Source of the DNA: an uncultured archaeon
GTDB taxonomy: Archaea > Nanobdellota > Nanobdellia > Pacearchaeales > GW2011-AR1
Reading direction: 5' to 3'
Length of the DNA stretch: 64,000 bases
Assembly: GCA_902386025.1 (NCBI GenBank)
Contig: CABMHR010000001.1
Location: 177,108-241,107, forward strand
Numbering within the stretch: position 1 is the stretch's first letter; every line of letters starts with the position of its first letter. Below are positions 14,074-48,285 of this stretch, piece by piece. A program made the translations under genes and the position numbers. The notes under the pieces were generated by a model. That model was not told the DNA's origin, did not search any database, and saw nothing but the letters and a program-made list of their open reading frames with translations.

Positions 14074-14652
14074 TTATTGTATTCCAGTTATCTTATACAA
14101 AAAACTATCACTTAGCTTGATTAAATCTTCGCTTTTCCCCTCGATAAAAACACAGCTTTTATTCTGGCTTATTCCTATATTGCTGCTTTTTCTTATTACT
14201 ATAAAATTATCATCGCAGGTTTTTGCAGGCGCATTTTCTGCGCATTTGTCTGCTTCAAGACACGCTTCCTGCACTCTCTGGACTATTTGGTTCTGATAAA
14301 ATAAATTTCTGTAAATTTCTGTTCCTGCTTCTGAATTTTCTGTATAAATATACAATGGCTTTCCCTGATAACTGCTTAATGGATTCAAGACAGAATTTGT
14401 TTTTTCTGCTTCATTTGGATTATACTGGAAAGAAAACTGGAAACTGCCTGCATTGGTGTTCCATAATCCTGATGTCTTTGTGAATTCAAATCCATTATAT
14501 TTCAAGCTTGTTGAACTGCTTTTATTGCTTCCGCTTAAAGAATATCCAATAGTGCTCAGCGCCATGACTAATATCAGAATTCCTCCGATAATCAGCTGAT
14601 TCCTTCTTCTCTTTTTTTCAACTTTTTCCTGCGAAATTATCTTCCTCATCAA
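14074..14652 (-). CDS. Hypothetical signal-anchored extracellular protein
   Basis: N-terminal TM. Confidence 0.4.
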   Translation of the reverse strand: MMRKIISQEKVEKKRRRNQLIIGGILILVMALSTIGYSLSGSNKSSSTSLKYNGFEFTKTSGLWNTNAGSFQFSFQYNPNEAEKTNSVLNPLSSYQGKPLYIYTENSEAGTEIYRNLFYQNQIVQRVQEACLEADKCAENAPAKTCDDNFIVIRKSSNIGISQNKSCVFIEGKSEDLIKLSDSFLYKITGIQ

Positions 14653-14764: not shown

Positions 14765-17242
14765 TTATGCAACTACAAGTGTAGCAGTTGTAGCAGAAGT
14801 ACCTTTGTATTTCTTTCCAACTGTTGTATCTACAGTTTGTGTTCTTAAGTAAGTAGCAGCATTTACAGTATCAGCAGCTTCATAACCCGCAACGACTAAA
14901 GCAACTTTCCCTGTTGAGTAAGTGCTTGCTAAACTTTGGATCAAGAATTGTCCTGAGCCAATGTCTGTCTTTGTTGTGAAATCGCTTCCACAAGTGCTTC
15001 CTAATAAATTAGCAGCAACAGAGTTAATACAGCTTCCACCAACAACAATCAAGTTCTTTGAACTTACAGAGCTAACTTCAGAGTCTTTTACAAGAACATC
15101 TCCAAGTTGTGTTGCTCCTCCTGTTGTTGAGCTTACAGATATGTCTCCACTATTAATGTATACTAATGGATTTGCAATGCTCTTTGGTATTGAAGCTTCT
15201 ATGCTTACTGGTGAATCTGCAGGGTCTGTGCTGATTATATGTTGTCCGTAAAGTCCAATATACTCTTGTACATTTGAATCATCTGGACTAGTTAACCATT
15301 TGCTTGTTCCTGCTTGAGTGACTTTTGCATCTCCAGAACTGTTTGTAACATTTACATAGAATACTGCTCCTTGGTTAGGAAGAGTGAACTGATCGTCATC
15401 TCTTGTTGTATCATCTATTGTTACATTTAAGCTCCAAGGGTCTGATACACTTGAGGTACCCACCGTATTGGTAGGATCAATTATCTCATTAACAAAGGTA
15501 GCATTTTTATCTGTTATATTAATCAACGTATTGTAATACGTTCTAATATAATTAGATACGCTTGCATTGCTTAAATCAGTAGTTGATTCTTTACTTCCAT
15601 AGTCCCCGCTACTGAATGCAATTAAACAATCATTAGCGCTTGAACAGCTTGAAGCATTTATGAAAGTAAAGTCTGCTCCAGCTTCTTGCAATGTACCATG
15701 TCCCATAGATCCAGCTGCTGTAGTCATAACTACATCTCTATCTACTTGGTTTGAACCAGGGTTTAGAGTAAAGTGGAATACGGGATTAGTATCTGTAGTT
15801 TTATCTGCTCCTTTATATTGAATCACAACTGTTTTAGCATTACTTGTAGGAACCTTAGGATTTCCAGTGTTTAGAATGACATAATCATTCTTTGAAACAT
15901 TTTGGAAAGTTGAAAGCAATACTAAGCTTTTGTCTGCATCAGCTCCACCATAGACTCCTGAAGTATTTGTGTATAATACAGGCAATTCAACTTTATCCCC
16001 ATTGTAGTTTACAAAATCAAGGGTATATTTTTTGTCATTTCCAGAAACTTTAAAGCTAATATTTTCATAACTTTGAGCTTTTAATCCTGCAAATGATATA
16101 TCCCAATTCTGTCCAACTAATACTTCTGGTTTATCCAAATCTGAAGCCTGGCTTAATTTCTTTCCAACTGGAACATATAAGTCATCTTCTGCAGTCATGT
16201 TAATTGCAATTTGGCTGATGGATACATCAGACACATTGCTTGCAGTTATATCAACATGTGCATCGCTTACTGTTTCTCCATTTACAACCATTGCAGAGTT
16301 ATTGTTCAATTCAAGTTTATCTGCTCCTATGTAGAATACAGCATTATTATCTGCTCCAGCAATACCCTGATAAGTTATATCAGTTACAGCTAGATATTTT
16401 CCATTGGCTAATTTTTCAATATCGCCTTTGTCCATCTTAGCTGTTGTTTCAGTTCCACTTGCTGAAGTAATAGTGAACTTTGCTTCAGTAGCACTTGTAA
16501 CTTCTGCACTAACAGTATATTCTCCTATAGTTAATGGTGTTGCACGGGCAGTTCCTGTTAAAGCACCGCTCATTAAAGTCAAATCTACACCTTTTGAAGT
16601 CATATAAGCACTTGTTATAGTGTAAGTTTTTCCCAAAAGAGTTATTTGTTTGTCCTCTATGTCTGATAATTTGTTGTCTGCTGTGTCAATATCAGATCCT
16701 AAAGCAGTACCAAAACTCATAACATACTTTGCAATCTGTTGTCCGCTTGGTATCTTAAAAAACAATCCTAAAGCATCTGTATCTGGGTCTGAAGTGTAGA
16801 TAACTCTACCTGGGTCGGATAAATCAGTTGTTTCAAAATAGAGATACTGCTTGTAAGTAGAATCTCCTTTCTCGTTAGAGAGAGAACCATCTGCTAAAAT
16901 AGCTAAGTCGCCAGAACTAATATATGAAGTAACTTCTGCTATAGATTCATTAATCTCCAATATATCAGAACTTGTTCCAACCTGCCAAGCATCTCCGCCA
17001 GTTACAGTAGTGCTTCCGCTTGTTCCAGTCATATATGATTGCAAGTTTGACTGAATGTTTCCTGCCTGAACTAAATCAAGTGAAGAAACACCAGAACCTG
17101 TACCATAAACAACAGCGACATTTGCAGCTCCTCCAGCAACGAAAGGTGCGGGATAATTTGCAGCTACAGCAGTGCCCATAGTTAATCCTACCATCAATGC
17201 GCTAGCAGCGATTGCCGTTACTTTTTTAAAATTTAATCTCAT
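14765..17242 (-). CDS. S-layer-like major surface protein
   Basis: Sec signal MRLNFKKVTAIAASALMVGLTMGTAVA. 825 aa, Thr/Ser/Gly-rich. There is a strong RBS (GGAGGT) and a long structured 5' leader. Confidence 0.55.
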   Translation of the reverse strand: MRLNFKKVTAIAASALMVGLTMGTAVAANYPAPFVAGGAANVAVVYGTGSGVSSLDLVQAGNIQSNLQSYMTGTSGSTTVTGGDAWQVGTSSDILEINESIAEVTSYISSGDLAILADGSLSNEKGDSTYKQYLYFETTDLSDPGRVIYTSDPDTDALGLFFKIPSGQQIAKYVMSFGTALGSDIDTADNKLSDIEDKQITLLGKTYTITSAYMTSKGVDLTLMSGALTGTARATPLTIGEYTVSAEVTSATEAKFTITSASGTETTAKMDKGDIEKLANGKYLAVTDITYQGIAGADNNAVFYIGADKLELNNNSAMVVNGETVSDAHVDITASNVSDVSISQIAINMTAEDDLYVPVGKKLSQASDLDKPEVLVGQNWDISFAGLKAQSYENISFKVSGNDKKYTLDFVNYNGDKVELPVLYTNTSGVYGGADADKSLVLLSTFQNVSKNDYVILNTGNPKVPTSNAKTVVIQYKGADKTTDTNPVFHFTLNPGSNQVDRDVVMTTAAGSMGHGTLQEAGADFTFINASSCSSANDCLIAFSSGDYGSKESTTDLSNASVSNYIRTYYNTLINITDKNATFVNEIIDPTNTVGTSSVSDPWSLNVTIDDTTRDDDQFTLPNQGAVFYVNVTNSSGDAKVTQAGTSKWLTSPDDSNVQEYIGLYGQHIISTDPADSPVSIEASIPKSIANPLVYINSGDISVSSTTGGATQLGDVLVKDSEVSSVSSKNLIVVGGSCINSVAANLLGSTCGSDFTTKTDIGSGQFLIQSLASTYSTGKVALVVAGYEAADTVNAATYLRTQTVDTTVGKKYKGTSATTATLVVA

Positions 17243-17630: not shown

Positions 17631-17975
17631 ATGGTAACAAGGGAAATAACAATAAAAGAAGCAAAGGGGGCATTTTCTATATTTAAGAAGCCCTCTAAGG
17701 GGAAGGAAGAATATGATTTCTCTGGGATATCTGCATTGAGGCAGGTGCTGGGCAATGAAAAAGCGAGGATATTAAGCGTCATAAAAAATGACAAGCCGAG
17801 TTCTTTATATGATTTGTCCAAGAAGCTTGGCAGGAATTTCAAGTCTGTTTACGCTGATTCTAAACTGCTTGAAAGATTTGGTTTTATAGAACTGGCTGAA
17901 GAGAAAGTAAATAACCGGACAAGATGCAAGCCAAAGATAGTAACAGATACCATAACAATACAAATTAAGATTTAA
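17631..17975 (+). CDS. Predicted winged-helix transcriptional regulator
   Basis: wHTH-like segment SLYDLSKKLGRNFKSVYADSKLLERFGFIEL. Confidence 0.4.
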   Translation: MVTREITIKEAKGAFSIFKKPSKGKEEYDFSGISALRQVLGNEKARILSVIKNDKPSSLYDLSKKLGRNFKSVYADSKLLERFGFIELAEEKVNNRTRCKPKIVTDTITIQIKI

Positions 17976-18451
17976 CTGTAAAGATTAAGGGAAACCTGAT
18001 AGTCTGTTCCTCCTCTTGTAAAGTCCTGAAATGCCCCCTGATAACTTGCTGTTTTATTCCCGCCTTGGAATTTTATCTTTTCCTGCTCATCTGCTGTAAT
18101 TTTAAATTCATATCCTTTTACTGCACTCTGGGTTCCAACATTCCATCCTTTTGTAACCATATTGCCTAAATTAGATTTTAATACATCACAGCTGTCTCTT
18201 CCATCAATGCATATATCTCCATTCTCGCAGGAAATTATCAATTCCTGCACAGGAAGAAATCCTATCTGGCTGTCGCAGTCTGTTGTATACTGCAGGCTTG
18301 ATTCTATAAAACTTTCAATTTCAGAATCTTGAACAATAGTCTGATCAGGAGTTTTTATCAAAAAACTAAGCAGGATTAGAAGGATTACCCCCACAATTAC
18401 TACAATCACTGCAAATCCAACCATCTCCTCTTGCGCTAATTTATCTCTCAT
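17972..18451 (-). CDS. Type IV pilin-like protein (class III signal peptide)
   Basis: MRDKLA|QEEMVGFAVIVVIVGVILLILL. A basic leader and +1 Gln are followed by a hydrophobic segment. Confidence 0.5.
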   Translation of the reverse strand: MRDKLAQEEMVGFAVIVVIVGVILLILLSFLIKTPDQTIVQDSEIESFIESSLQYTTDCDSQIGFLPVQELIISCENGDICIDGRDSCDVLKSNLGNMVTKGWNVGTQSAVKGYEFKITADEQEKIKFQGGNKTASYQGAFQDFTRGGTDYQVSLNLYS

Positions 18452-19074
18452 TGTGTTTTGTCCTCAGAACTAACCATTAATCTGGCAAGTTCGCATTTAT
18501 CATAAGCTCCTGTCCCGCCTGATTTCTTCCTGCACAGCGAGATAAAACTTGAACTGGAAGGCAGTGTTTTTACATTCTTGTCAAGGATTTTAAGAACCCC
18601 GCAATTTGGATAATTTTCCATATTGCATTCTATATTTCCAGAATCAGGATAAACTTTCCTTATTTCTATTTTTGCAACACCCCAGAAACCAGAAAATTTA
18701 TCTTTATTTTCTGAAAGAATTATAACTTTATCAAAATCAACGCAGTCTGTTCTGCTGCTCCCAAATGCATTTTCGCAGGATAACTCTGGAGAATTTGCAA
18801 GTTTTGATACAAGAAGAGTAGCTTCTTTTTCTGCAAGATTTGTAGCTGTTTTCTGAAGATTCTGCATTATTATGGATAGAAAAAACAATCCGACAAGAAC
18901 AAACAGGAAAGTAACTGCTATAATCATAAAAACCATCTGCTGTATTTTCATCTGAGCCGAGCGATTTCGCGGTATTAAGGCACGTGTCATGCAAGCGAAG
19001 TCGGGAGTAGAGCGATTTCGCGGTATTAAGGCACGTGTCATGCAAGCGAAGTCGGGAGTTTTTTTGTTTACCAT
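18448..19074 (-). CDS. Type IV pilin-like protein with two tandem copies of a 17-aa leader insert
   Basis: MVNKK[TPDFACMTRALIPRNRS]x2 AQM + hydrophobic. Confidence 0.55.
   Translation of the reverse strand: MVNKKTPDFACMTRALIPRNRSTPDFACMTRALIPRNRSAQMKIQQMVFMIIAVTFLFVLVGLFFLSIIMQNLQKTATNLAEKEATLLVSKLANSPELSCENAFGSSRTDCVDFDKVIILSENKDKFSGFWGVAKIEIRKVYPDSGNIECNMENYPNCGVLKILDKNVKTLPSSSSFISLCRKKSGGTGAYDKCELARLMVSSEDKTQ
18958..19059 (-). repeat. Two tandem copies of a 51-nt GC-rich in-frame element in a prepilin leader
   Basis: Sense strand is actcccgacttcgcttgcatgacacgtgccttaataccgcgaaatcgctc(t/g), twice. Confidence 0.85.
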
Positions 19075-20006
19075 AGCAGGCAGTCTCCGGCATTATTTAT
19101 TTCAGTTATAGCATCTGCTTCTGTCTTGACAATTCCCAATTCAGAAGAGCTTGTTAAATCTCCTGCAAGCTGGCTTAATTCATCCAAACTTCCTCCTGCA
19201 TTGTTGTCACATCCTTCTTTCTGGATAAGCATCCCTTTGTCTTTATACAGCAGAGAAATTTCTTCTAATCTAAGCATTAATCTTTTTATCTGGCATTCAT
19301 ATGCATCTTTGTCTGAAAATATTGCAGCATACATCAATGCGCTTGTCCCTTCTCCTGTTTCAGCAAAATACATAATTTTTCCGTCTTTCTCAACAGATTC
19401 AGAAGACAAGTCAACATTTATGTCGCAGTTTTCATTGTTGAAGCATATTCTTATTCCATTCTGGGCGCAGTTGTCTATAAGCAGATTGCTCTGGTTTAAA
19501 TTGAATATTTCCTGGCTTATCTCTTCAGGAGCGTCGACAAAGCAGTAGCTTTTTTTTGAAGAAGTCATGTAAATCAAGTCTGCAATTTTGAATGGGAAAT
19601 CAAAGGGTTTTGAGAAAATGTAAAATGTTTTTCCTTCTGTTTCATTGTCTGAGAAAATATATTTGTTTTCAAAAAAAATGTTCACGTCGGTTTTTACCCA
19701 TTTGTTGAAGCTTTTTTGCTCCAGTTGTATTCCCTGCTTCCCAAAATTCCCCGCACTGTCGCAGATGTTATGAATTCTTGTCTCTGTTGGGATTGTTATG
19801 GAAGTTGTCTGCGCTGTTTCGTAGCTTGTTTCCAGAGGATTTAACAAAGCATCTATTTCCTTTCCTGTCTTAGCGCTTACTGTTTCCTGCCCAGAATTAA
19901 TTAATTTTGAACTGAAATAAATAGCAAGAAAAATTATGACAATTCCCGCAATAAGAGCAAACAGCCAGCCAAAAGAAATTTCAAGCGCCCCTTTTTTTTC
20001 TTTCAT
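19068..20006 (-). CDS. Type IV pilin-like protein
   Basis: MKEKKGALEISFGWLFALIAGIVIIFLAIY. Confidence 0.55.
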   Translation of the reverse strand: MKEKKGALEISFGWLFALIAGIVIIFLAIYFSSKLINSGQETVSAKTGKEIDALLNPLETSYETAQTTSITIPTETRIHNICDSAGNFGKQGIQLEQKSFNKWVKTDVNIFFENKYIFSDNETEGKTFYIFSKPFDFPFKIADLIYMTSSKKSYCFVDAPEEISQEIFNLNQSNLLIDNCAQNGIRICFNNENCDINVDLSSESVEKDGKIMYFAETGEGTSALMYAAIFSDKDAYECQIKRLMLRLEEISLLYKDKGMLIQKEGCDNNAGGSLDELSQLAGDLTSSSELGIVKTEADAITEINNAGDCLLW

Positions 20007-20110
20007 AAATAAAAATACCGAATATAACTTATAAATTTTCCTAATATTTTTTTCTTTCTTATTCTCTTGCCCCTTTCTATCATTGTAGGTTCTTTTTTAA
20101 AAGAACCTCA

Positions 20111-20593
20111 TTATCTTGTAATAGTTACTAATGTCTCCCCGTAATTTTTTACAATATTCATGCTTATTTTTCCCTTGACATTCTGGATGCAGAATGGATT
20201 TTCATCTTTGATTGTTTTTGCAATATCAATATTTTCAATTTTCTTTCCTGCAATTATGCTTTTGGAGGTGAATTTCATATTTTCAAACTCATCATTCTGA
20301 AAACATACAGAACTAATCTTTGTGGGCAGAGAATATTTCACGCTTTGGCTTCCTTCGCTGCTCTTCCACATTTTGTTTACATCTTCCTGAAAATTTTGCG
20401 AGAAGGTTTGTATCTGCACATCCTGCTGCATATTCAAAAATTTTGTTATAGCATAAAATCCAAAGACAAGAAAAACAATTATAAGAATAATGGAAAAAAT
20501 CATTCCGAATGATAAATTCATCTGTGCCGAGCGATTTCGCGGAATTAAGGCACGTGTTATGCAAGCGGGTTCGCGAGTTTTCTTATCCATCAT
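20111..20593 (-). CDS. Type IV pilin-like protein with leader insert
   Basis: MMDKK[TREPACITRALIPRNRS]AQMNLSFGMIFSIILIIVF. Confidence 0.55.
   Translation of the reverse strand: MMDKKTREPACITRALIPRNRSAQMNLSFGMIFSIILIIVFLVFGFYAITKFLNMQQDVQIQTFSQNFQEDVNKMWKSSEGSQSVKYSLPTKISSVCFQNDEFENMKFTSKSIIAGKKIENIDIAKTIKDENPFCIQNVKGKISMNIVKNYGETLVTITR
20528..20578 (-). repeat. 51-nt GC-rich in-frame element copy
   Basis: Sense strand is actcgcgaacccgcttgcataacacgtgccttaattccgcgaaatcgctcg. Confidence 0.85.
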
Positions 20594-20732
20594 TAAAAAT
20601 GCCGAATATAACTTATAAATTTATCGAGACAATCCTTTATTACTATTTTTTATTATCAACATCTTTTGAAGACAATCAATCATACCTGCTCGTAACCTCT
20701 CGCAGATTTTTGTTAAATTTTATACACAGAAG

Positions 20733-21083
20733 TTAAATCCAATAACATCTCGTGGCAACCATAAAAATCTCATGCTGTTTAAATCTTCTTTTTAATGTCT
20801 CTTTATATTCTTTTAATTCCTTTATCTTTGCAACATTGCAGATAGTCATCTTATCTTCTGAATCAATTAAGATAGTATAAACAACTGTTTTATCATTATA
20901 TCTCTTTTTGTTATTTGGATTTATCCAAGAACCAATTATAGGGGTGTTGGTTGTATTTATCCCACCTGCCATTTTTAATAATTCTTCATAAGTATCAAAG
21001 AAAGATTCCTCTGGAATTTTCCCTCCCCCGTCTTCAAGGTTAAAATTAATAGGTAATTGTATATCTACTTTAAAATGAGTCAT
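20733..21083 (-). CDS. Hypothetical protein
   Basis: 116-aa ORF. Confidence 0.3.
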   Translation of the reverse strand: MTHFKVDIQLPINFNLEDGGGKIPEESFFDTYEELLKMAGGINTTNTPIIGSWINPNNKKRYNDKTVVYTILIDSEDKMTICNVAKIKELKEYKETLKRRFKQHEIFMVATRCYWI

Positions 21084-21313
21084 TATTCTTCTTGATTTAT
21101 CGGTAATTCAGTAAAAGAAATATTATTATCACTCAAAATTCTAAGAAATCTTTTTTCTACAATAAACTCGTCCTGTTTGTCTGAGTAAGTATTTCCATTA
21201 GTCATTAACAGATAAAATCCCTTTATTTTATTCTCTCTTGAATGATTAATTTTTATTCTTACATAAATATGTTCATTTTCATTGTTAACACAAGAACAAA
21301 TTTCATCAGGCAT
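21083..21313 (-). CDS. Hypothetical protein
   Basis: 76-aa ORF. Confidence 0.25.
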   Translation of the reverse strand: MPDEICSCVNNENEHIYVRIKINHSRENKIKGFYLLMTNGNTYSDKQDEFIVEKRFLRILSDNNISFTELPINQEE

Positions 21314-21383: not shown

Positions 21384-24300
21384 TTAGTAAGAACTGACAG
21401 GCCTTGCAATCAAGCTGCATTCAGCAGGAGATGGCTGGTTTCCAAATTCATCCTTGCACTTTATGTAGAATATGCTGTTAATATTCCAGTCTGTTGAATG
21501 AGCTAAATTATCTGCGGTTGTCATCTTTAGCCCGTCTTTAAAGTCATATCCGCAGTTGGTTGTGTCATAAACGCAGTCTGCTTTCTCGTTTGTTGTAATT
21601 TTCAGCTGATTGACGTCGTTGTAAACTCTTGTAACTATGGGGGCAGTTGTATCTGTCTTGACTGTAAATGTTGTTGCTTGTGTCTGGCAGTTTAATCCGC
21701 TGTCACAGCATTTTATTGAATAAGTATAAGTTCCTGAATCCAGCCATAAATCCTGTGAATGCTGATAAGAATCTGTGTTGGCAAATTTGGCGTAAATTGT
21801 TTCTGATGATTCTTTGAAGAAGCAGGCTGCTTCTCCGTTTTGATATCCTGCAGAAGTTACTGCTTCTAACTTAACGTGGACGCTTTGAGTTGAATCTTTT
21901 ATTGTTGTTCCGTCTAAAGGAGCAATGCTGTTAATTACTAAATCTCTTGTTCCGATTAGCTTGTAAACATAAGATTGTGTCATTGCTGTTCTTTCTGATT
22001 CTTTGTCTGTTCCCTGCTTTGAAGGATAGCTCTTGCATCTAAAGTAAAAGTTATTTTCAACTTCATCTCTTATTCCTGTTAATGTAGTTGTGCATTTGTA
22101 GAGCATATTTGCGCTTATTTCTGTGCTTTCCTGTGCGCAAGTCATTGTATTAGTCATTGCATCATAACTCTCGTCGTTGTGGCTCCATTTGCAGTCTGAT
22201 GGCTTGTCTGTATAAACATCAACTGATTTTGAAGTAACTCCTTTTTGTGTTGGCGCTCCGTTGGATGGGTTTGTCAGTTCAACAGAAGGGGCAGTTGTAT
22301 CTGGCTGGCTCTGGACGCAGTATTTGAATACAAATGTTCCGGCAGTTGAAACTCCATTCTTGCTCTGGCATCTTACATAAGTTTCATAATTTCCTCCATT
22401 TTCTATTTGAACTCCCTCGTCGCTTAACTCGCTTGTTCCTGGATGGAATGAAAGGATGCTGTGATTTTCTATGAAATGTCCTTGGCTGATTAATCCGGGA
22501 TTTGTCATACTGTCAAAAGTGCTTTTTCTGACAGTGTCAATTCTGCATTGTCCTGGCTTGTCTAAATTTATTCCGTAAGTTATTTTTTGGAATGGAAGTG
22601 CGCATCCGTCGCTGGTTTCTGTGTTGATTATTTTCACTCCCTTGTCAGATGCAGATGTTGTTGCAGGCTCGTATTTGAATCCTTCCTGCAATGCTCCTTC
22701 CCATGCAGACATTGTAGGAGGTGTGACATCATTTCTATTATTGAAATAACATTTCTCTTCGCTTGTTCCTTCATTCAGCAATTCACAATTCTGCCCCAAG
22801 CTCTCGCATTTGTATTTTGTGCAGGGCAATTGTCCTGTATTGCATTTCTCGCAGTTTGCTCCGCCTGTTGCAGGCTGCCACGAGTTGCAGGTATATTGAA
22901 CTGCTACAACTTCTCTTTCTCTGTGAAATATTACAAAGAGGATAGCAGAAATTCCAAGTCCAATCAATCCTCCTACAAATCCTGTAAATAAGAAAGTAGT
23001 ATCTTTTCCAATAACACCCAATCCAAATAATAATGTTTCAATTGCAGAACCTGCTGCATATCCTATTCCTAATACAATTCCTGCATCACTCCATGCCTGA
23101 GGATCTGGATTTCCAGGGATAGTGCTTATTCCCCATAATCCTGCCCAAAGTCCAACAGCAATAACAGAATTTCCAACTATCGCCCATATTCCTCCGTTGT
23201 TAAATATATTGCTTAAAAAATTTGGTGCTTCATCTTGAGTGTATCCCTTATATCCTGTTCCAGGAGATGCACTATTTGGATTTGTATTCCCTTGTTGTTG
23301 TGAAGTTAAATCAGTTACAGCTGTTTTCGCTTTTCCATACACATCTAAATAACCCCCTGCTAAACTAGCCATATCAACAGCTGATGGGGTGCTGGATGGT
23401 TCTTTTGATGTTTCCTTTTCCCCTATCAAGTCTAATTTATCACAACAAACACCATTTCCATTTAACTCTATAAATCCTGTTCTAACATTACAAGAAGTTC
23501 TAGTAGTCCCATATTTTGCATTTAAATCAACACACTTATTTTTATCTACGCAACTTGCTCCAGAATTGCATTTTTTATTTGCCTCTTCATTATTGTTTGT
23601 TCCAGTTCCAGTGGTTGCTGTTCTTGGATTTATTGTTAAAGTAAAAGATTTTGTATCTGTTCCTTTAATTTTTTGGCTTCCCCCCCCTGCAGAACAATAT
23701 GCTTTTGCAGTTACAGAGAAACTTGTAGAGCCTGCATTTTTTACTCCCCCCAATGAATAAAATTCCCCACTAAATTGATTATAGTCTATATTATGGCCTG
23801 CACTTCCAATAGTGCTTGCTGCGTTTGAAACTTCCCAATGAACTTCGCACCCGCTTAAACTATATATAGACTTTATATTTGTGGTTAATGTAAAAAGAGT
23901 ATCTTTTTGTCCAACAGTTACAGAAGGTGAAGCAGAATTTATAGCAAATGATGTTGATGAAGTTGTTGATGCTTCTGGGTTAATTATTGTTAAAGCAAAA
24001 GTTTTTGGATTTGATACATATAATGGATTATTCCCTTCACTTATTTGTGTTTGAACTTTAAAAGTATATGTTCCTGCTGTTGTTGGTGTCCCAGAAAGAA
24101 TCCCCGTTTCTGTATTAAAAGATAATCCTGGGATTATTAATTGAAAATTCTCTGGAGTCATTATTTTCCATTCATAATAAGCAAGAGAGGGTTTATACTT
24201 TGTTCCATAATTTACACTAAGTTGAAGAGAATATCCTGATTTACCTGCTTCCCATATTAATTGTGAATCTGTTACATCGTTTATGTCTATGGATGAGGCA

Positions 24301-24440
24301 GTAGCACTCACGATTTTGAATTCATTCCCAAGAAGATAAGCGAAAGCAGCGATGCTGACAACTAAGATAAAGATTTCAAATATTGACATTCCTTTTTCTG
24401 CTTTCCTCTTCAGCGAACTTTTGTTTTTTATTTTATCCAT
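21384..24440 (-). CDS. Giant pilin-like surface protein: N-terminal signal/TM, He_PIG-like Ig domain, central multi-TM segment, Cys-rich C-terminal domains
   Basis: KAEKG|MSIFEIFILVVSIAAF. LSGTPTTAGTYTFKV is a He_PIG-like motif. Residues ~420-500 are strongly hydrophobic. There are many Cys residues. Confidence 0.55.
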   Translation of the reverse strand: MDKIKNKSSLKRKAEKGMSIFEIFILVVSIAAFAYLLGNEFKIVSATASSIDINDVTDSQLIWEAGKSGYSLQLSVNYGTKYKPSLAYYEWKIMTPENFQLIIPGLSFNTETGILSGTPTTAGTYTFKVQTQISEGNNPLYVSNPKTFALTIINPEASTTSSTSFAINSASPSVTVGQKDTLFTLTTNIKSIYSLSGCEVHWEVSNAASTIGSAGHNIDYNQFSGEFYSLGGVKNAGSTSFSVTAKAYCSAGGGSQKIKGTDTKSFTLTINPRTATTGTGTNNNEEANKKCNSGASCVDKNKCVDLNAKYGTTRTSCNVRTGFIELNGNGVCCDKLDLIGEKETSKEPSSTPSAVDMASLAGGYLDVYGKAKTAVTDLTSQQQGNTNPNSASPGTGYKGYTQDEAPNFLSNIFNNGGIWAIVGNSVIAVGLWAGLWGISTIPGNPDPQAWSDAGIVLGIGYAAGSAIETLLFGLGVIGKDTTFLFTGFVGGLIGLGISAILFVIFHREREVVAVQYTCNSWQPATGGANCEKCNTGQLPCTKYKCESLGQNCELLNEGTSEEKCYFNNRNDVTPPTMSAWEGALQEGFKYEPATTSASDKGVKIINTETSDGCALPFQKITYGINLDKPGQCRIDTVRKSTFDSMTNPGLISQGHFIENHSILSFHPGTSELSDEGVQIENGGNYETYVRCQSKNGVSTAGTFVFKYCVQSQPDTTAPSVELTNPSNGAPTQKGVTSKSVDVYTDKPSDCKWSHNDESYDAMTNTMTCAQESTEISANMLYKCTTTLTGIRDEVENNFYFRCKSYPSKQGTDKESERTAMTQSYVYKLIGTRDLVINSIAPLDGTTIKDSTQSVHVKLEAVTSAGYQNGEAACFFKESSETIYAKFANTDSYQHSQDLWLDSGTYTYSIKCCDSGLNCQTQATTFTVKTDTTAPIVTRVYNDVNQLKITTNEKADCVYDTTNCGYDFKDGLKMTTADNLAHSTDWNINSIFYIKCKDEFGNQPSPAECSLIARPVSSY

Positions 24441-24452
24441 TTTCCTGTATTT

Positions 24453-26060
24453 TTATGCAGTTCCTGTGCTCAAGTTTGTTTTTGTTATGCTTTCCTGAAC
24501 ATTCCCCTTTGCTCCTGCATAATTTGTTTTGTCTCCGCAGTCTCCTAATTTAGTGCAGATGCTGTTCATCTTGCTTGCCCAGGTTTTTCCTCCGTCGTAA
24601 TTTCCATTTGCGTCATTTACGCAAGAGCAGTTATTTCCATTCCACCATAAATTATTGAGATCAGGCCCTTCGCATACATAGTTGGAGTTTATTATATCCT
24701 TCTTCATCTGAACATAGCATAAAGTATTCGCCAGCTGACAGGAATCTATTGCATCTGTTGTTCCGTCTCTTGCAAATCCTGGCTGGATTTTTGGAACGCA
24801 CAATCCTGCAGAGCTTGAATTGACAAGCTTTCCTTCTTCAACCGAATAAGAATATCCGCTGCTTGCTATCCAAGAGCAGTCTCTTACATTGACATCATTG
24901 CAGTCTTCTTCTTTTGTTTGAAGTATGCAGTCCTGCCAGACATTTGCCCTGCAGTTTGCAGACATAAAAGGGCTGTCTGTTGTTCCTATGTCTGATTCAG
25001 AGCAGACTTTCTGCCTTGTGGAATCGCATTCTTCCATTGTAACTTCTCCATTATAGCACATCATTCTGAAAGAAGTTGAACCAGGAGAATTTTCATTCCC
25101 TGCCTTCGCATCTGTTGCACACCAAGTCTCTCCGTGTTTTGGCTTTCCTGTTCCGCTGTAAATTCCATTGTAGCTGCTGCAGTCAAGGCTTCTGCATAAA
25201 TTATTTCCCACACTCACAGATTCTCCTGCTTTTTTTGTCTGACACATGCTTCCAGAATAATAATCGCAGTCTCCGCAGGTTGCAGAATTTTTATTTCCGG
25301 GATTGCTTGCAGCAGTGCAGTCTGGCTTTTGTATTGTTGTCCAATAAGGAACACTGTCTTTTTTGCTCGCATCATAAATATTTGCAAGATTTCCGCAGGT
25401 ATCTGTAAAATAAACATCATCTCCGCTGCATATTGTGTTTGCACTCTTTGCGCATATTGTTCCAAGTTCAGGCGCACTGCATAAAAATCCCTCGTGGAAA
25501 GATACATCTGACAATGTTTTTGCATTATTCTGGCAGTTTTCTTTTGTTGTCATCTCGCAGGTTTTTGCAGAAGTTTTTGCATCAGTATAAACACACGCCC
25601 CCTTTGCATTTGGGTTCGCGCTTGCGAGGCAGGTTAATTCATCATTTATATTCGCATTCCAGTTAATTGTTAATCCGTATGTTGAAGCCATCCTGTTGCA
25701 CGCAATCTGTGTTACAAATGCAACCTGATCTCCGAGAAGACAGCATCCCAAACTGCACTGGGATAAATCGCTTTCTGATTTATCGCTCCATATTCCTCCG
25801 TTGTTTGTGCAGACGCTTTCTGTTGAAGCAATGCAGGTTCCTTCCTTCTGGTTGATGCAGGTTCCTGTTTTGCAGTATGAAGTTGATTCGCATCCGGCAG
25901 AAATTGCATTATACGACGGATTGCATTCTGATTTTGAACTTTCTTCCTGGCACCATGCTCCAGAATTTGTTTTTTCACAGCAGTAATTTGCAGAACTTGC
26001 AATTCCAATTAAAAAAATTCCTAAAATTAAAAACGAATAAATTATTTTTCCTCTTTTCAT
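24453..26060 (-). CDS. Cys-rich secreted protein
   Basis: Signal MKRGKIIYSFLILGIFLIGIASSA, then a large number of Cys residues. Start trimmed to the internal Met. Confidence 0.5.
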   Translation of the reverse strand: MKRGKIIYSFLILGIFLIGIASSANYCCEKTNSGAWCQEESSKSECNPSYNAISAGCESTSYCKTGTCINQKEGTCIASTESVCTNNGGIWSDKSESDLSQCSLGCCLLGDQVAFVTQIACNRMASTYGLTINWNANINDELTCLASANPNAKGACVYTDAKTSAKTCEMTTKENCQNNAKTLSDVSFHEGFLCSAPELGTICAKSANTICSGDDVYFTDTCGNLANIYDASKKDSVPYWTTIQKPDCTAASNPGNKNSATCGDCDYYSGSMCQTKKAGESVSVGNNLCRSLDCSSYNGIYSGTGKPKHGETWCATDAKAGNENSPGSTSFRMMCYNGEVTMEECDSTRQKVCSESDIGTTDSPFMSANCRANVWQDCILQTKEEDCNDVNVRDCSWIASSGYSYSVEEGKLVNSSSAGLCVPKIQPGFARDGTTDAIDSCQLANTLCYVQMKKDIINSNYVCEGPDLNNLWWNGNNCSCVNDANGNYDGGKTWASKMNSICTKLGDCGDKTNYAGAKGNVQESITKTNLSTGTA

Positions 26061-26061
26061 T

Positions 26062-26850
26062 TTATGATGTTGCATATCCCGCAGCCCATATCTGGCTCTT
26101 TGATGCAAATTCAAATTTATTTCCTGTATTTCTGTCTGTTATTGAATATATTTTCTCTCCGCTGTCTCTCAAATCTTTTTCAACTTTCAAATCGTGGTAA
26201 TACGCCATATAAGTTGTTACTTCTGCATCTCCGTAGGCAACTTCCCACTGCAGTATGCTATTAGCTATTGCAACTAATTCATAAAGATTATTGTTCAGAA
26301 TTACAACAAATGAATCATATTTCTGCGTGTCTCCTTTTGTCAATGTCAGTGAGTAATTGAATGTTGAGACAATTCTCTTCGGAAGAAGTTCAACTGATGT
26401 AGCTCCTGATTTCAAATCAACGCTGTATCCCTGACTTTCATAGCTGGATTTCATCGACGAGAAGCACGAATTAACTTCAGAAGAAATTGCATTTTTTATT
26501 TCTGATTCAATGTGCTGCTTCAGCATTGGCTGCTGGACAACGCAGAAAACTTTGTTTGTTGCCTTGAAATACTGGTTTGTGTAGCATAAAAATTCAACTT
26601 TATTGTTGTCTTTAAGAATAAAATTCTCTGGATTTAAACTTCCCCCCTGCAGCGATATCTTGGTTACTGCGTCGGTGATTCCTTTTTCAATGCAGGTTTG
26701 AATGTAAGACTGCGGAGTTTTTGCCTGTGCTCCGAAAGTTGTTTTAATCTGCGGATAAAAACTATAAATCAAAAAACCTGCAACAACAATTATTATTCCA
26801 ATAATAATAAATATAGTAATCTGCCCCTTTCTGTTCCACCTCTTGTTCAT
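26062..26850 (-). CDS. Archaeal type IV pilin (class III signal peptide)
   Basis: MNKRWNRKG|QITIFIIIGIIIVVAGFLIY, a canonical KG|Q site. Confidence 0.65.
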   Translation of the reverse strand: MNKRWNRKGQITIFIIIGIIIVVAGFLIYSFYPQIKTTFGAQAKTPQSYIQTCIEKGITDAVTKISLQGGSLNPENFILKDNNKVEFLCYTNQYFKATNKVFCVVQQPMLKQHIESEIKNAISSEVNSCFSSMKSSYESQGYSVDLKSGATSVELLPKRIVSTFNYSLTLTKGDTQKYDSFVVILNNNLYELVAIANSILQWEVAYGDAEVTTYMAYYHDLKVEKDLRDSGEKIYSITDRNTGNKFEFASKSQIWAAGYATS

Positions 26851-27057
26851 TCTATTTTTAAGATATCTTTATTTATAAACTTTAAGAATAAAAAGAATTT
26901 ATAGAAACGCATAAGCTGAAAGAGTTAAAAACTTGAGATATATAAAATAAGTATATACCCCCTAGGATTGACTTTGAGCAAACCTGGGTTTATCTTTAAA
27001 TATTTATTAAAGAAATTTTGTTTGGATAATTATACTTAAATAATCTTCTCATTTATA

Positions 27058-27540
27058 TTGTTTATGAGATTTGAGGTAGATTTAAGCGGATGTGATATTT
27101 TTATTGAAAATAGTGTTTTGGGACTTTCTAATTGTAAAGGGTTAATAAAAGGTTTTCAGATGAATAATAAGATTATTGGGGGTTTACAAACTAATTGGAA
27201 AGCAGGGAAATATTCGTGCAAATATTCAAAAAGGGGGTTGGGGTTTTTTAAGGCAATGGTTTATTCTTCAATAATTTGCGGGTTATTAGAATCTATCCAA
27301 GCGAAAGAAGTAGAATTAGAAATTTGCAGGGATCTTAGATTCCATGAGAATAACATTAGACAAAGATTAAATAAATTATTAAGAAAAAAGCTTGGAGTAA
27401 AAGTAAATTCAATTATTTTCAAATCTATGAAAGGGACTGATGTAGATAATTATGTTTATTTAATGTTTAAAGATAACTATAACTTGCTTCCAACATATGT
27501 TAATTTATCTTTATTGGACATAGAAAAATTCTTAATTTAA
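27058..27540 (+). CDS. Hypothetical protein (orphan, Cys-containing)
   Basis: 160-aa ORF in an intergenic island. Confidence 0.3.
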   Translation: MFMRFEVDLSGCDIFIENSVLGLSNCKGLIKGFQMNNKIIGGLQTNWKAGKYSCKYSKRGLGFFKAMVYSSIICGLLESIQAKEVELEICRDLRFHENNIRQRLNKLLRKKLGVKVNSIIFKSMKGTDVDNYVYLMFKDNYNLLPTYVNLSLLDIEKFLI

Positions 27541-29871: not shown

Positions 29872-31665
29872 ATGAACAAAAGAGTGTGTTTTTTATTTTT
29901 GCTTGGTTTGGTTTTATGTTCATTATTTGCTGCTGCAGCCAATGATACAACTACAGACATACAGACAAAAGCTTATGCCTGTCTGGGAAATAAAGTAAAC
30001 GGACATTGTTCTTCTCTTTCAACAGAAGAAAAAATATTCTCTCTTTTATCAATAGGGCAGTGCAAATCAGAACTTCTTTCAGATTCATTTTCAACTCAAT
30101 GCTGGCCTGAACAGAAATGCACAGTAAAATCAACAGCACAGGCAATTCTTGCATTAAGCAAGGCAGGAATTGACACATCAAAAGCAGAAACTTGGCTGTT
30201 GTCGCAGTCAATAAACTCAAAAGATATTGACTGGTTCCTGCAGGTTGAGGCAAATACTGCTGCTGGAGAAGAAACATCCTGTTCAGTTGCTTATTCGGAT
30301 AATTCAATTCATCATTTTTCTATAAATGAAGACAAGACATTAAGCGGAGATGCAGGAAATTGCTTAAGTGTTTATCAGGATTATTGGTTCAAGGTATCTT
30401 CTTCGTGCTACAACGAGCAGTTTAAAGTTTCCTGTTCTGATTCTTTTCAAACTTCTGTATTGTATCAAAAAACAGATGCAGGCACAAATGATTTTTATGT
30501 TTCAGACAAGACAGCTTCTGCATCAGGCGAGGGGACAACAACAGAAAATATAAATTTATCCTGCTTCAAGACAGGCTCTGTCTGTGATTATGAAGGAACA
30601 TTATGGGCAGCAATTGTTTTAAAATATCTGAAATATGATGTATCTTCTTACATTCCATATTTAATTGCAATGTCAGGAAACAATCCCCAATATATTCCTG
30701 AATCTTTCCTTTACACACTGACTGATAATTTCAGGACAGATTTGCTGACAAGACAGCAGGAGAATCAATGGTGGGCTGCATCAGGGGACAAATTTTATGA
30801 TACTGCTGTTGCACTTCTTCCTTTCCAAAATGAAGATATAACCGAAAAAGCAAATTCAAAAGCTTGGCTTAGCGGCGTTCAGGGAGCAGATGGATGCTGG
30901 CAGGACAATATAAGGAATACTGCATTTATTCTTTATTCTCTTTGGACAAAAAATATTAATGTTACAGTAACCCAGAAAAATTGCGAAAGTTCAAATCATT
31001 TTTGTATGTCAAGCGCTTCGTGTTCAGGCATAAGTGGAACAGAATTAACAGATTACAGCCAGTCTTGTTTGGGAACAAATATTTGCTGTGATAGGCAGAA
31101 AGTATTAGCAAGCTGTTCTGCTCAAGGAGGAAAATTATGCTCTTCAGGAGAGCAGTGTCTTGGAGGAAGTGATATAGATGCATCTGATTCTTTAAACAGC
31201 ATATGCTGTGTAAGCGGGACTTGCGGAGTTCAGCAGCAGACAGCGTGCAGTTCTTCAGGAGGAATATGCAGAGATTCCTGCTTCAGCACAGAGCAATTTT
31301 CTTCATCTTCCTGCTCTTCATCTCAAGTTTGCTGTGTTTCTTCATCAGCATCGCAGAAATCTTCAGGAAGCTTGGTTATTATTCTGCTCGTAATATTAAT
31401 AGTTCTTGCTTTGGCTGGAATAATCTTCAGGAAGAAATTAAGAGAACTTTTCTTGAAATTCAAGTTTGGCGGGGGAAAAGGAAAAGCTCCAACAACTCCA
31501 AGCCCAAGATTCCCTCCAACATCATCTTCAAGAGTTTATCCGGGATTAATTCCAAGAACAATAATTCCGCAGAGAGCTCCTGCTACAAGAGCGCCTGTGA
31601 GAAAACCTGCAGGAAGGGATGAAGTGTCAGATGTTCTCAAAAAATTAAAAGATATTGGGAAATAA
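29872..31665 (+). CDS. Cys-rich secreted protein with C-terminal TM and Pro/Arg-rich cytoplasmic tail
   Basis: Signal peptide, many Cys, TM LVIILLVILIVLALAGIIF. Confidence 0.5.
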   Translation: MNKRVCFLFLLGLVLCSLFAAAANDTTTDIQTKAYACLGNKVNGHCSSLSTEEKIFSLLSIGQCKSELLSDSFSTQCWPEQKCTVKSTAQAILALSKAGIDTSKAETWLLSQSINSKDIDWFLQVEANTAAGEETSCSVAYSDNSIHHFSINEDKTLSGDAGNCLSVYQDYWFKVSSSCYNEQFKVSCSDSFQTSVLYQKTDAGTNDFYVSDKTASASGEGTTTENINLSCFKTGSVCDYEGTLWAAIVLKYLKYDVSSYIPYLIAMSGNNPQYIPESFLYTLTDNFRTDLLTRQQENQWWAASGDKFYDTAVALLPFQNEDITEKANSKAWLSGVQGADGCWQDNIRNTAFILYSLWTKNINVTVTQKNCESSNHFCMSSASCSGISGTELTDYSQSCLGTNICCDRQKVLASCSAQGGKLCSSGEQCLGGSDIDASDSLNSICCVSGTCGVQQQTACSSSGGICRDSCFSTEQFSSSSCSSSQVCCVSSSASQKSSGSLVIILLVILIVLALAGIIFRKKLRELFLKFKFGGGKGKAPTTPSPRFPPTSSSRVYPGLIPRTIIPQRAPATRAPVRKPAGRDEVSDVLKKLKDIGK

Positions 31666-31790: not shown

Positions 31791-33062
31791 ATGAAAAAAG
31801 AGGTGATACTTGTATTAATGTTATTTTGTTTAGTTTTTCCTTTCGTTTCTGCAGTTGAATTTGATTTAAATCAGAATTTCAGCCAAGGAGAGACATTAGT
31901 GGAAAAAGTGTCAGGAAATTTTCTTTCTCCTTTGACAAAAAATAATATTTTCTTTTACGAAGGGCACGTCAGAATTCCTATGGAATACGGAGTATTGGGA
32001 ATAAACGGCGATTATTACATTTACGCTCTTTTATCTGGAAAATCCGAAGGCGATTATTCTGTATCAATTGAAAATGCGCAGTATATGAAAGGAGCAGAAA
32101 TATTGAGCGATAAAATAATAAAAAATTTTACAATAACAAATGAGACAGCAGATTTTTTTGTCAGTCCAGGAGTAATGATTTCAGCAGGGGATTTTTTTCT
32201 TGAACTTCAGAATACAGGCGACAATCAGGTAACAATCAGCATAAATACTGAAGCAAATAATTCTGGAATAAGGAAAGTAGAAGCTTCTGCAAATTCTGTC
32301 CAGTTAAAATCAGGGGAAATAAAAAAAATATACTTCAAGGTTGGAATAGGAAAGCCTGAACTGAAGACAATTGAATTGAAAACAGAAAAAACAATTTATG
32401 AAATTCCTGTTTACATATCTTCTGAACTTGAAGGAATATTGCAGCCGACTTTCAGCTTTGAGCCGTCAAGCGTGACTTATTCATTCCCAACAAATTCAAT
32501 TATCAAGGAAACAATTTATCTTTATAATACTGGAGAGAAAGAGATAAACAACATAAACATTTCTCTTGATGATTCTCTAATTTCTCTTGTGAATCTTTCT
32601 GTGACAAAGATTACAAGTTTAAAGCCGGATTCAAAAGTTTCCATAGAGCTGACTTTCTTCTCTAAAAACGAGACAACAGAATTGGGAAATCTAAAGGCAA
32701 AATCAGAAGACGCAATAGCATATTCTTCAATCTCATTGAAACTGATGAACAATTATACTCTTTCTCCTAACGAGACAATTCAATCATCAGCAAAAACCTG
32801 CACAGAACTTCTTGGAAGTGTGTGCAATATCTCCACAGAAAAATGCAGCCAAGAGCCTGTATATGCAACAGACAATTTGTGCTGTATGGGAACCTGCGAT
32901 AAAATTCAAAAATCAGGTTCATCAGCTAAAGTAATCGGAATACTTCTTTTTATTCTCGTTGTTGCAGGAGGAGCTTGGTTTTATTTCAAGAAATACAAAA
33001 AGGCAAAAAAACCTCTTAATCTGCTTGAAGTAGCAAAAGGAAAACCTGCTGTCAAGCAGTAA
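31791..33062 (+). CDS. Secreted protein with C-terminal TM anchor
   Basis: Signal peptide. C-terminus reads CCMGTC...VIGILLFILVVAGGAWFYFKKYKK. Confidence 0.5.
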   Translation: MKKEVILVLMLFCLVFPFVSAVEFDLNQNFSQGETLVEKVSGNFLSPLTKNNIFFYEGHVRIPMEYGVLGINGDYYIYALLSGKSEGDYSVSIENAQYMKGAEILSDKIIKNFTITNETADFFVSPGVMISAGDFFLELQNTGDNQVTISINTEANNSGIRKVEASANSVQLKSGEIKKIYFKVGIGKPELKTIELKTEKTIYEIPVYISSELEGILQPTFSFEPSSVTYSFPTNSIIKETIYLYNTGEKEINNINISLDDSLISLVNLSVTKITSLKPDSKVSIELTFFSKNETTELGNLKAKSEDAIAYSSISLKLMNNYTLSPNETIQSSAKTCTELLGSVCNISTEKCSQEPVYATDNLCCMGTCDKIQKSGSSAKVIGILLFILVVAGGAWFYFKKYKKAKKPLNLLEVAKGKPAVKQ

Positions 33063-33262: not shown

Positions 33263-33751
33263 TCATTTATTCTCATCTCTTTTTTTGTTTTTTTCCTTAA
33301 CCTCTTCTCCAAGTGATTCTCTTAATTTCTTCTCCAGAATTGTTTTTTCTGTCTGCAAAATTCTTGTTATTTCCTCGTAGCCGTGCAGTCTTCTTGTCAA
33401 TTCATTGAGGATTTCCCCAAAACTTGCATTTGTCAGCTGAATATTTTGGGGGGAAGTAATCTCAACATATGCAGGCATATATTTGAACATCAATCCAACA
33501 ATAGACAAAAGCTCTTCAGCTTCAATCTCAATCTCTGCAAAACTCGTGTAAAAATCTTTCTGCTCTTTCATAATGACAGGCGGATTTATTTTTGTCTCTC
33601 TTAATTTTATCCCTTTTTCCTGCCCAATCCTCTTTACCAAGTCGTTCAAGGTTTCAGTCAGGAATTCTGCAGGCCTTCCAAGGACTTCAAGAATGAAAAC
33701 TGCATTTATTTTTTTCTCATTTGAACTCATTTTTATTTTTTCTCCTTCCAA
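33263..33751 (-). CDS. Hypothetical protein
   Basis: 162-aa ORF. Confidence 0.35.
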   Translation of the reverse strand: MEGEKIKMSSNEKKINAVFILEVLGRPAEFLTETLNDLVKRIGQEKGIKLRETKINPPVIMKEQKDFYTSFAEIEIEAEELLSIVGLMFKYMPAYVEITSPQNIQLTNASFGEILNELTRRLHGYEEITRILQTEKTILEKKLRESLGEEVKEKNKKRDENK

Positions 33752-34316
33752 TCAAAAACAAAATACCGAACATAACACAGAAGGTTATGATTCCGTAAAA
33801 AGATAAATTCTTTTTCAAAATTTCTTTATTATCTTCGCTTTTTATACTTTTTGCATCTTCAGTATCTGCATTAAGAGTTATTGCAGGAAGCTCTACTGCC
33901 TTTTCAGAATTTTTTGCATTGCTGCTTGGCATAGAAGTTGTGTGGGGGATGTTCTCTGATGCTTCTGTATCTTTGTCTGTATTTGTATAATTATCTTCTA
34001 TTGTTTCATTTTCCTTAATTTCTGTTGTGTTTTCATCATTTGTTTCTTCATCTTCATCCACACAAGCCAGCCCTTGAGATTTTATTTGATTTAATCTTGT
34101 TCCATTTCCTATCCCGCTAACTCTTGCTAAATCATCAACAGAACCAAATGGGCGCAGTTCAATAATGCTCTGCGCTCTTGCAGGGCCTATTTGAGTTATT
34201 TCCTGCAGGGCAGTTAAATCAGCAGTGTTAATATTAATTTGAGTTGAATTGCATAATGCGAAGGCGTTTGATATTAATGCAACTGCAATTAAGAAAATCA
34301 TCAACCTCTTAATCAT
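33717..34316 (-). CDS. comEA: ComEA-like helix-hairpin-helix DNA-binding protein, membrane-anchored
   Basis: ININTADLTALQEITQIGPARAQSIIELRPFGSVDDLARVSGIG. Signal at the N-terminus and a TM at the C-terminus. Confidence 0.6.
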   Translation of the reverse strand: MIKRLMIFLIAVALISNAFALCNSTQININTADLTALQEITQIGPARAQSIIELRPFGSVDDLARVSGIGNGTRLNQIKSQGLACVDEDEETNDENTTEIKENETIEDNYTNTDKDTEASENIPHTTSMPSSNAKNSEKAVELPAITLNADTEDAKSIKSEDNKEILKKNLSFYGIITFCVMFGILFLIGRRKNKNEFK

Positions 34317-48208: not shown

Positions 48209-48285
48209 CTTATAAAATGTATGAATAACTTTTTATATTTGTCGCAGAATAATTGAGGTGTCAGTCTCTGATTATTATTTATTGA

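Follow-up and report, generated by a model that had tools for sequence, protein, structure and literature searches.

A conserved cluster of prepilin-like and cysteine-rich protein genes in Woese- and Pacearchaeota-type archaea

What might an archaeal cell build from a prepilin-like protein, a secreted protein dense in cysteines and a 1018-residue membrane protein that are encoded one directly after the other? The genes for these three proteins, which we call A, B and C, lie in a 64,000-nucleotide stretch of DNA from an uncultured archaeon (contig CABMHR010000001.1 of GenBank assembly GCA_902386025.1, positions 177,108 to 241,107; hereafter the window). An earlier note, made from the letters of the DNA, had read them as an operon and suggested a surface machine for cell-cell interaction. 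They are three co-oriented open reading frames (ORFs) on the minus strand, where that note had placed them, and they open a seven-gene cluster in which four more prepilin-like genes, F, G, H and I, follow downstream of C (Table 1). The locus is clearly a cell-envelope system. Our tentative reading, which we put at somewhat less than an even chance, is that its prepilin-like proteins form a surface assembly and that B and C add to it a disulfide-rich module, an adhesin or anchor. A putative role in cell-cell interaction is plausible.

A conserved cluster with five prepilin-like genes

The window has a G+C fraction of about 0.34 and encodes the end of an archaeal large-subunit ribosomal RNA, archaeal RNase P, PCNA, primase and a homologue of the RuBisCO large subunit. 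The first three genes of the cluster are packed as tightly as the earlier note had claimed: the likely start of B (ATG at 26060) lies 1 nucleotide past the stop codon of A, and C starts 12 nucleotides past that of B. To describe their surroundings in other genomes, we combined the neighbourhoods of B homologues with a phmmer survey of 83 fetched loci. About 45 species-level loci share an invariant order: primase (minus strand), PCNA, A, B, C, F, G, H, I, a gene of the HVO_A0114 family on the opposite strand, an S-layer protein gene, and the genes K and L. Amino-acid identity across these syntenic loci is only 40-60%.

Relatives of C are encoded by at least 578 species genomes, all but two of which are labelled Woese-, Pace- or Nanoarchaeota or simply archaeon. 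The close relatives all come from metagenome-assembled genomes named Woesearchaeota, Pacearchaeota or Nanoarchaeota. The two exceptions (L070 and L075) are short contigs binned as 'Methanosarcinales' and 'Alphaproteobacteria'; they are most likely mis-binned DPANN contigs, not a real occurrence outside the clade. The cluster is inherited vertically and confined to DPANN archaea of the Woese-/Pacearchaeota type. A literature search returned no description of the cluster, of B, of C or of the five pilin-like families.

Gene A begins MNKRWNRKG/QITIFIIIGIIIVVAG (here and below, the slash marks the predicted cleavage site). Its cleavage region, RKG/QITIFIIIGIIIVVAGFLIY, has a short basic leader ending in [KR][GA] and then a hydrophobic helix of about 20 residues. 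Both this translation and the class-III motif in the orthologues bear out the KG/Q signal that the earlier note had read in A, and make it a prepilin-like protein. Relatives of A, F, G, H and I share the same design: after the basic leader come Q (or, in the case of G, Y, F or A) and the hydrophobic helix. This [KR][GA]/Q motif, helix included, is found in 63 of 70 orthologues of A, 60 of 71 of F, 66 of 68 of G, 55 of 64 of H and 49 of 60 of I (82-97%). F and G are paralogues (hhalign probability 96%); otherwise the five families are unrelated to one another beyond the helix. Such mutual distinctness, save for F and G, is what minor pilins display, and it supports the proposal of a prepilin-based assembly. 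Each of the five genes is single-copy per locus, the exception being A', a second copy of A that accompanies an extra module in about 20 loci.

Some prepilin-like leaders also contain a GC-rich repeat of 51 nucleotides that keeps the reading frame (encoding ...AC(M/I)TRALIPRNRS), includes inverted repeats and in every case immediately precedes the [GA]/Q cleavage motif. Its sites in the window (18947-19059, with two tandem copies; 20517-20578; 55203-55241) fall in H, F and an unlinked 200-residue pilin-like ORF at 54668-55270, and a 39-nucleotide core is identical in three copies. Two other genomes have the 3' part of the repeat (PRNRS) at this position of their pilin leaders (L005, near 7691 and 14501; L036, near 13130, 15130, 15181 and 18942). 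We rejected a structured RNA or known RNA family, as there was no significant fold and no Rfam match. A mini mobile element or a gene-conversion tract could account for the repeat, since a leader that is cleaved off would tolerate it; alternatively, it may be a shared regulatory site.

A, F and G each have a TATA-like motif about 25 nucleotides before the ATG, and A-B-C therefore appears to be the first transcription unit of the locus, the others being F and G-H-I. The motifs resembling the one before A lie at 20612-20622 (upstream of F) and, for G, inside a 45-nucleotide repeat at 19994-20038. This repeat, D2, recurs in direct orientation at 20578-20622 with 84% identity, so that its copies stand immediately upstream of the G and F start codons, and it carries the TATA-like sequence AAATTTATAAG. 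The two copies are probably duplicated promoters that give leaderless transcripts; like the motif before A, which has features of a TATA box and a transcription factor B recognition element (BRE), they are putative promoters by analogy with archaeal promoter architecture.

Three small ORFs interrupt the conserved order in the window. Two of them (76 and 116 residues) overlap each other between C and F (20733-21313), and a third, of 160 residues, lies on the plus strand between PCNA and A (27058-27540), flanked by a 29-nucleotide inverted repeat (26990-27018 / 27448-27476). None has a Pfam match. No other syntenic locus has them, which makes recent insertion likely.

Table 1. Coordinates in the window of the clustered genes, the parts of C and conserved neighbours
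Feature	Coordinates	Strand	Description
TATA/BRE-like motif	26871..26883	-	AAAGTTTATAAAT, read from the sequence; about 25 nucleotides upstream of the ATG of A; putative promoter
Gene A	26062..26850	-	262-residue prepilin-like protein, class-III signal RKG/QITIFIII; first gene of A-B-C
Gene B	24453..26060	-	secreted Cys-rich protein, 535 residues from MKRGK; alternative starts 26075, 26114
Gene C	21384..24440	-	1018-residue membrane protein, NCBI VVB83678.1
C residues 18-38, N-terminal hydrophobic helix	24327..24389	-	preceded by basic leader KRKAEKG/MSIFEIF, followed by VSA (44-46)
C residues 47-407, variable slot	23220..24302	-	361 residues; He_PIG at residues 105-152 (23985-24128)
C residues 408-505, Gly/Ala-rich three-helix block	22926..23219	-	AlphaFold2 secondary structure
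C residues 506-1018, conserved core	21387..22925	-	Cys knot 518-564, then about five beta-sandwich domains
Gene F	20111..20593	-	prepilin-like, paralogue of G; 51-nucleotide in-frame insert in leader
Gene G	19068..20006	-	312-residue prepilin-like protein, KKG/ALEISFGWLFA
Gene H	18448..19074	-	prepilin-like, ...A/QMKIQQMVFMII; two tandem 51-nucleotide inserts in leader
Gene I	17972..18451	-	159-residue prepilin-like protein, DKLA/QEEMVGFAVIVV
HVO_A0114-family small protein	17631..17975	+	Pfam PF25212, E 1.8e-13; between I and the S-layer gene in about 45 loci
S-layer-like protein	14765..17242	-	825 residues; Pfam S_layer_C, E 4.6e-7; conserved neighbour
K	14074-14652	-	N-terminally anchored, paralogue of L
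L	13205-13996	-	N-terminally anchored, paralogue of K

The cysteine-rich proteins B and C

At least 740 full-length homologues, none with a Pfam domain, make up the family of B, and with so many relatives B is a real gene. Its maximal ORF (24453-26114) gives 553 residues from a TTG, the length in the earlier note. Translation from the ATG at 26060 (MKRGKII...) gives MKRGKIIYSFLILGIFLIGIASSA/NYCCEK and 535 residues, and the NCBI call (VVB83679.1) has 540 residues from MQHHK; this entry and that of C, VVB83678.1, are both deposited as 'Uncharacterised protein [uncultured archaeon]'. The earlier picture of a secreted protein with dozens of cysteines holds, given its 43 cysteines and a Sec-type signal (...IGIASSA/NYCCEK) with no anchor, but the length is likely 535-540 residues. 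Cysteine makes up 8.0% of B, and 38 of the 43 cysteine columns are invariant. The variable ones are lost in pairs (345-370 and 463-478, phi 1.0).

The AlphaFold2 (AF2) model of B is beta-rich, with a predicted local distance difference test score (pLDDT) of 90.8. Its best Foldseek match has an E-value of 1.3 in the PDB and 0.23 in BFVD; Pfam and NCBIfam hold no relative, and a profile search against PDB sequences gave nothing. B, then, appears to be a secreted disulfide-rich protein whose modelled fold lacks a solved analogue. A PilY1-type tip adhesin was considered and set aside: B has no Neisseria_PilC or other Pfam match, and the Foldseek search of the PDB had no match at E<1.

The conserved core of C lies in its C-terminal half. 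Residues 511-1018 (508 residues) hold 23 cysteines (4.5%), 21 of them conserved in the core, which confirms the roughly 500 Cys-rich residues first described there. We searched for the family with residues 380-1018; full-length C returned only He_PIG repeat proteins. The core has 2001 relatives at E<=1e-3, counted as representatives of 50%-identity clusters (1163 at E<=1e-30), and C is on this account a real gene. Total length in the family runs from about 650 to 1700 residues.

Residues 520-1018 are all-beta in the AF2 model, with pLDDT above 90. Foldseek matched the core in the PDB to tandem immunoglobulin (Ig), fibronectin type III (Fn3) and cadherin ectodomains (E 2e-13 to 1e-8), matches that are generic, with target-normalised TM-scores of 0.04-0.35 and sequence identity of about 10%. 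These tandem chains, and no fusexin or HAP2 class-II-like fusogen, fill the 50 best listed PDB matches, and we rejected a fusogen on that basis. No Pfam, NCBIfam or PDB sequence-profile relative of the core was found, and no Big or He_PIG profile matched it; neither B nor C matched the Pfam domains S_layer_N and S_layer_C. Since neither B nor the C core has a relative in Pfam, NCBIfam or the PDB, the architecture lies outside the annotated pilin, adhesin and S-layer families, as had been supposed.

The N-terminus of C is ambiguous. An AF2 model built with 117 homologues places a helix at residues 12-38, and the pilin-like leader EKG/MSIFEIF is present, with E or Q at position +5 in 101 of 118 family members. 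However, position -1 is G, S, A or T in just 70 of the 118 (K in 15), position -2 is K or R in 66, and a conserved ...VSA behind the helix resembles the signal-peptidase-I site of B. The segment could be a class-III-like signal or, equally, a long Sec signal cleaved after VSA, or a Sec anchor.

Behind this helix lies a slot whose length varies from 29 to 361 residues (median 92) among 118 relatives, the window's C having the longest. Across the family the slot is rich in A, G, T, S and P. In the window it contains a He_PIG domain (PF05345, E 1.4e-6; 29.1 bits, against a Pfam gathering cut-off of 24), a match that covers only profile positions 51-95 of 96. Among the best 120 listed homologues, the window's C alone carries it. 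AF2 confidence is low for residues 40-408, because the homologues do not align there. The Ig-like region that the earlier note placed after the leader thus passes the Pfam threshold but stands outside the conserved design of the family; it is a lineage-specific filling of the slot.

A natural experiment in about 20 loci shows what else the slot can hold. Upstream of A-B-C these loci have a second module, A'-B'C', in which A' always precedes a fusion of B and C. The fusion, a single ORF of 1200-1420 residues, opens with a C-like N-terminus (for example, KIAIAEILILVLGIFSFSYLL...ISA); then come a Cys-rich domain resembling B, the helix block and finally a core like that of C. The B-like domain sits exactly in the variable slot of C. 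Together with the constancy with which A travels with the pair, this fusion argues strongly, on comparative grounds, for joint action of A, B and C and for an extracellular slot.

Between slot and core, AF2 predicts three helices (417-440, 447-473 and 486-505; pLDDT about 80), which we number H2 to H4, the N-terminal helix being H1. The central block is thus helical in the model, not the buried beta structure that had been named as an alternative. Mean Kyte-Doolittle hydropathy is 1.16, 0.61 and 1.88, and only the last helix is strongly hydrophobic family-wide. Median insertion free energies on the Hessa scale are -0.1 kcal/mol for H1 and +3.9, +4.7 and +1.0 kcal/mol for H2 to H4. Of the three central transmembrane helices first proposed, all three are predicted as helices, but the two inner ones have unfavourable insertion energies and one is a clear transmembrane segment.

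Assembly, topology and neighbours

In the prepilin-based assembly that we favour, a prepilin peptidase encoded elsewhere would process A, F, G, H and I. Joined by their N-terminal helices, the five proteins would then build a short scaffold resembling a pilus or pseudopilus, much like a tip or priming complex of minor pilins. B would be held on C, and the B-C pair with A would form a membrane-anchored distal or adhesive part. The slot of C would present lineage-specific binding domains, He_PIG here and a B-like domain in the paralogues. The structure would probably traverse or contact the neighbouring S-layer and serve attachment to a surface or host. The data establish which genes are present, their signals, the B-C fusion, the paired cysteines typical of disulfides and how well the locus is conserved; processing, filament formation, B-C contact and adhesion we infer.

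Several observations weigh against such an assembly. Searches with A, F, G, H and I brought up no pilin family of Pfam or NCBIfam at E<=0.1, and the profiles of A and G found no significant relative, and no solved pilin, among PDB sequences. Neither the 50 window ORFs scanned, which lack a match to Peptidase_A24, T2SSE or T2SSF, nor the annotated 20-kb neighbourhoods of two other loci (L001 and L003) encode a prepilin peptidase, assembly ATPase or platform protein. The class-III signal in the leader of C is not clean across the family. Lastly, H1 and H4 are the only helices of C with the look of autonomous transmembrane segments; if the two inner helices behave alike, simple helix parity would leave the core of C in the cytoplasm.

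The window does encode one ATPase of another kind. This HerA/DUF87-type protein (436 residues) is divergently paired with a 368-residue membrane-anchored protein that has 10 cysteines and a Ser/Thr-rich tail, the pair spanning 46898-49392. We rejected the ATPase (46898-48208) as a type IV pilus motor, as it is not of that type.

Helix parity leads to a different protein altogether. C could be a type-I-like receptor that is cleaved after VSA46, exposes the variable domain, spans the membrane once through residues 486-505 and keeps its 500-residue core in the cytoplasm for signalling or scaffolding. The near-zero insertion energies of H1 and H4 alone, with +4 to +5 kcal/mol for H2 and H3, fit this arrangement, as do the odd number of central helices in the AF2 model and the 1-3 K/R residues that follow H4. 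However, that flank has no net positive charge (mean 1.8 K/R against 2.0 D/E), and positive-inside charge counts favoured neither topology of C. Cysteines account for 0.79% of the cytoplasmic proteins of the window, 4.5% of the C core and 5.4% of a neighbouring protein with a signal peptide and a C-terminal anchor. Moreover, the variable cysteines of C are gained and lost strictly pairwise (768-783, phi 0.96; 912-918, phi 0.97), not in fours. Pairwise gain and loss points to disulfides rather than metal sites, so that B and the core of C are probably extracellular, and the fold matches of the core are themselves extracellular tandem Ig, Fn3 and cadherin chains. We therefore regard a disulfide-bonded, extracellular core as likely and the receptor as very unlikely.

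A class-III signal need not imply a filament. Archaea use such signals on non-pilus surface proteins, for example the sugar-binding proteins of Sulfolobus. On this precedent, and with no ATPase or platform gene found in the locus, the signals might only anchor or oligomerise a bindosome-like complex that supplies a metabolically dependent cell with captured substrates, such as extracellular DNA or nutrients. A further point in its favour lies about 7 kb from the cluster: a 199-residue ComEA-like protein (33717-34316, minus strand) with a Sec signal, a helix-hairpin-helix domain (HHH_3, E 8e-13), an acidic linker and a C-terminal anchor, which by these features is predicted to be an extracellular DNA-binding protein. 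It has a counterpart in the neighbourhood of L003. Against this, the ComEA-like gene is inconstantly linked, with none in the annotated neighbourhood of L001; Pfam and NCBIfam detected no ligand-binding or transporter domain in any member of the cluster; and five distinct, stoichiometric pilin-like proteins are more typical of minor-pilin sets. We consider a capture complex of this kind quite unlikely.

The S-layer gene raises a further alternative. The cluster adjoins it in every long locus, and the encoded S-layer-like protein has a Sec signal but no C-terminal transmembrane segment, anchor or sorting signal. The membrane helices and rigid Ig-like stalk of C could, together with B and the pilin-like proteins, form pillars that tether or space this anchor-less protein, with no filament at all. 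In favour of such an S-layer anchoring or organising complex, the locus also behaves like a single-copy core that is inherited vertically, not like an accessory pilus island. However, the S-layer gene is a separate unit, set apart by the HVO_A0114-family gene, which is always on the opposite strand and whose product is a possible regulator. K and L are the more obvious candidates for S-layer anchors: in nearly all loci the genes for these N-anchored paralogues (hhalign probability 95%) come straight after the S-layer gene. The hypervariable slot and the duplicated A'-B'C' module also suit exposed binding better than a structural spacer. We judge the pillar arrangement unlikely, and keep to the prepilin-based assembly.

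On the other side of the cluster, beyond primase and PCNA, lie genes for two more envelope proteins. The first (29872-31665, plus strand) encodes 597 residues with a signal peptide, 32 cysteines and a C-terminal anchor; the second (31791-33062, plus strand) encodes 423 residues and likewise has both a signal and a C-terminal anchor. Most loci keep the two genes in synteny, and the conserved envelope region therefore extends over about 20 kb.

The most far-reaching role that we can imagine for the prepilin-based assembly is that of a host-contact apparatus of Woese- and Pacearchaeota. A five-protein pseudopilus would drive a B-C head, stiffened by disulfides, across the S-layer. The helix block of C, rich in Gly and only marginally hydrophobic, would insert in the host membrane or line an intercellular bridge, not span the cell's own membrane, and the slot would set host range. 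We offer this as a long shot, the least probable of the schemes discussed here.

Significance and comparison with known systems

Woese- and Pacearchaeota rank with the uncultured archaea of greatest abundance and diversity, and their envelope and partner attachment lack description. The locus is a concrete candidate for their surface or attachment apparatus. It defines several unannotated protein families, the natural B-C fusion supplies evidence of interaction, and the hypervariable slot could serve as a marker of host or surface specificity.

The closest parallel in organisation is with the minor-pilin and pseudopilin tip complexes: FimU-PilVWXE with PilY1 in type IVa pili, GspH-I-J-K in type II secretion systems and ComGD-GG in Com systems. 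There, too, four or five dissimilar prepilin-type proteins are co-encoded, a large secreted non-pilin protein shares the operon, and the major pilin and motor may lie elsewhere. Yet no sequence or fold relationship to these complexes was detected, and B is not a PilY1-type beta-propeller. The locus also adds the membrane protein C, uses archaeal [KR][GA]/Q signals and has no secretin, ATPase or platform gene nearby.

Among archaea, type IV pilus-like systems such as the Epd pili of Methanococcus and the PilA-type adhesion pili with S-layer-like proteins (Makarova et al. 2016, PMC4858521) likewise combine class-III G/Q proteins, clustered minor-pilin-like genes and, frequently, S-layer-like neighbours. 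Those loci are defined by ATPase and TadC genes and by pilin arCOG families, whereas none of these, nor a pilin Pfam family, was detected in the locus described here. B and C have no counterpart in those systems.

C on its own recalls the tandem Ig-like adhesins, which include He_PIG and Big proteins, cadherin-like chains and the GhpA grappling hook. Its core is likewise a string of beta-sandwiches, and in the window its slot holds a He_PIG domain. Unlike them, the core has its own invariant cysteine pattern, and C adds a central helix block and an N-terminal helix. The S-layer of Sulfolobus offers another likeness, in that the gene for the anchor-less lattice protein SlaA stands beside that for the membrane-anchored stalk SlaB. 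There is no homology, however; SlaB is a single coiled-coil and beta-sandwich anchor without pilin-like partners, and it is K and L, not C, that lie directly downstream of the S-layer gene here. The building principles of the locus, class-III signals and Ig-like stalks, are thus already known from other systems; what is new is a set of several unannotated families, with components of unknown fold.

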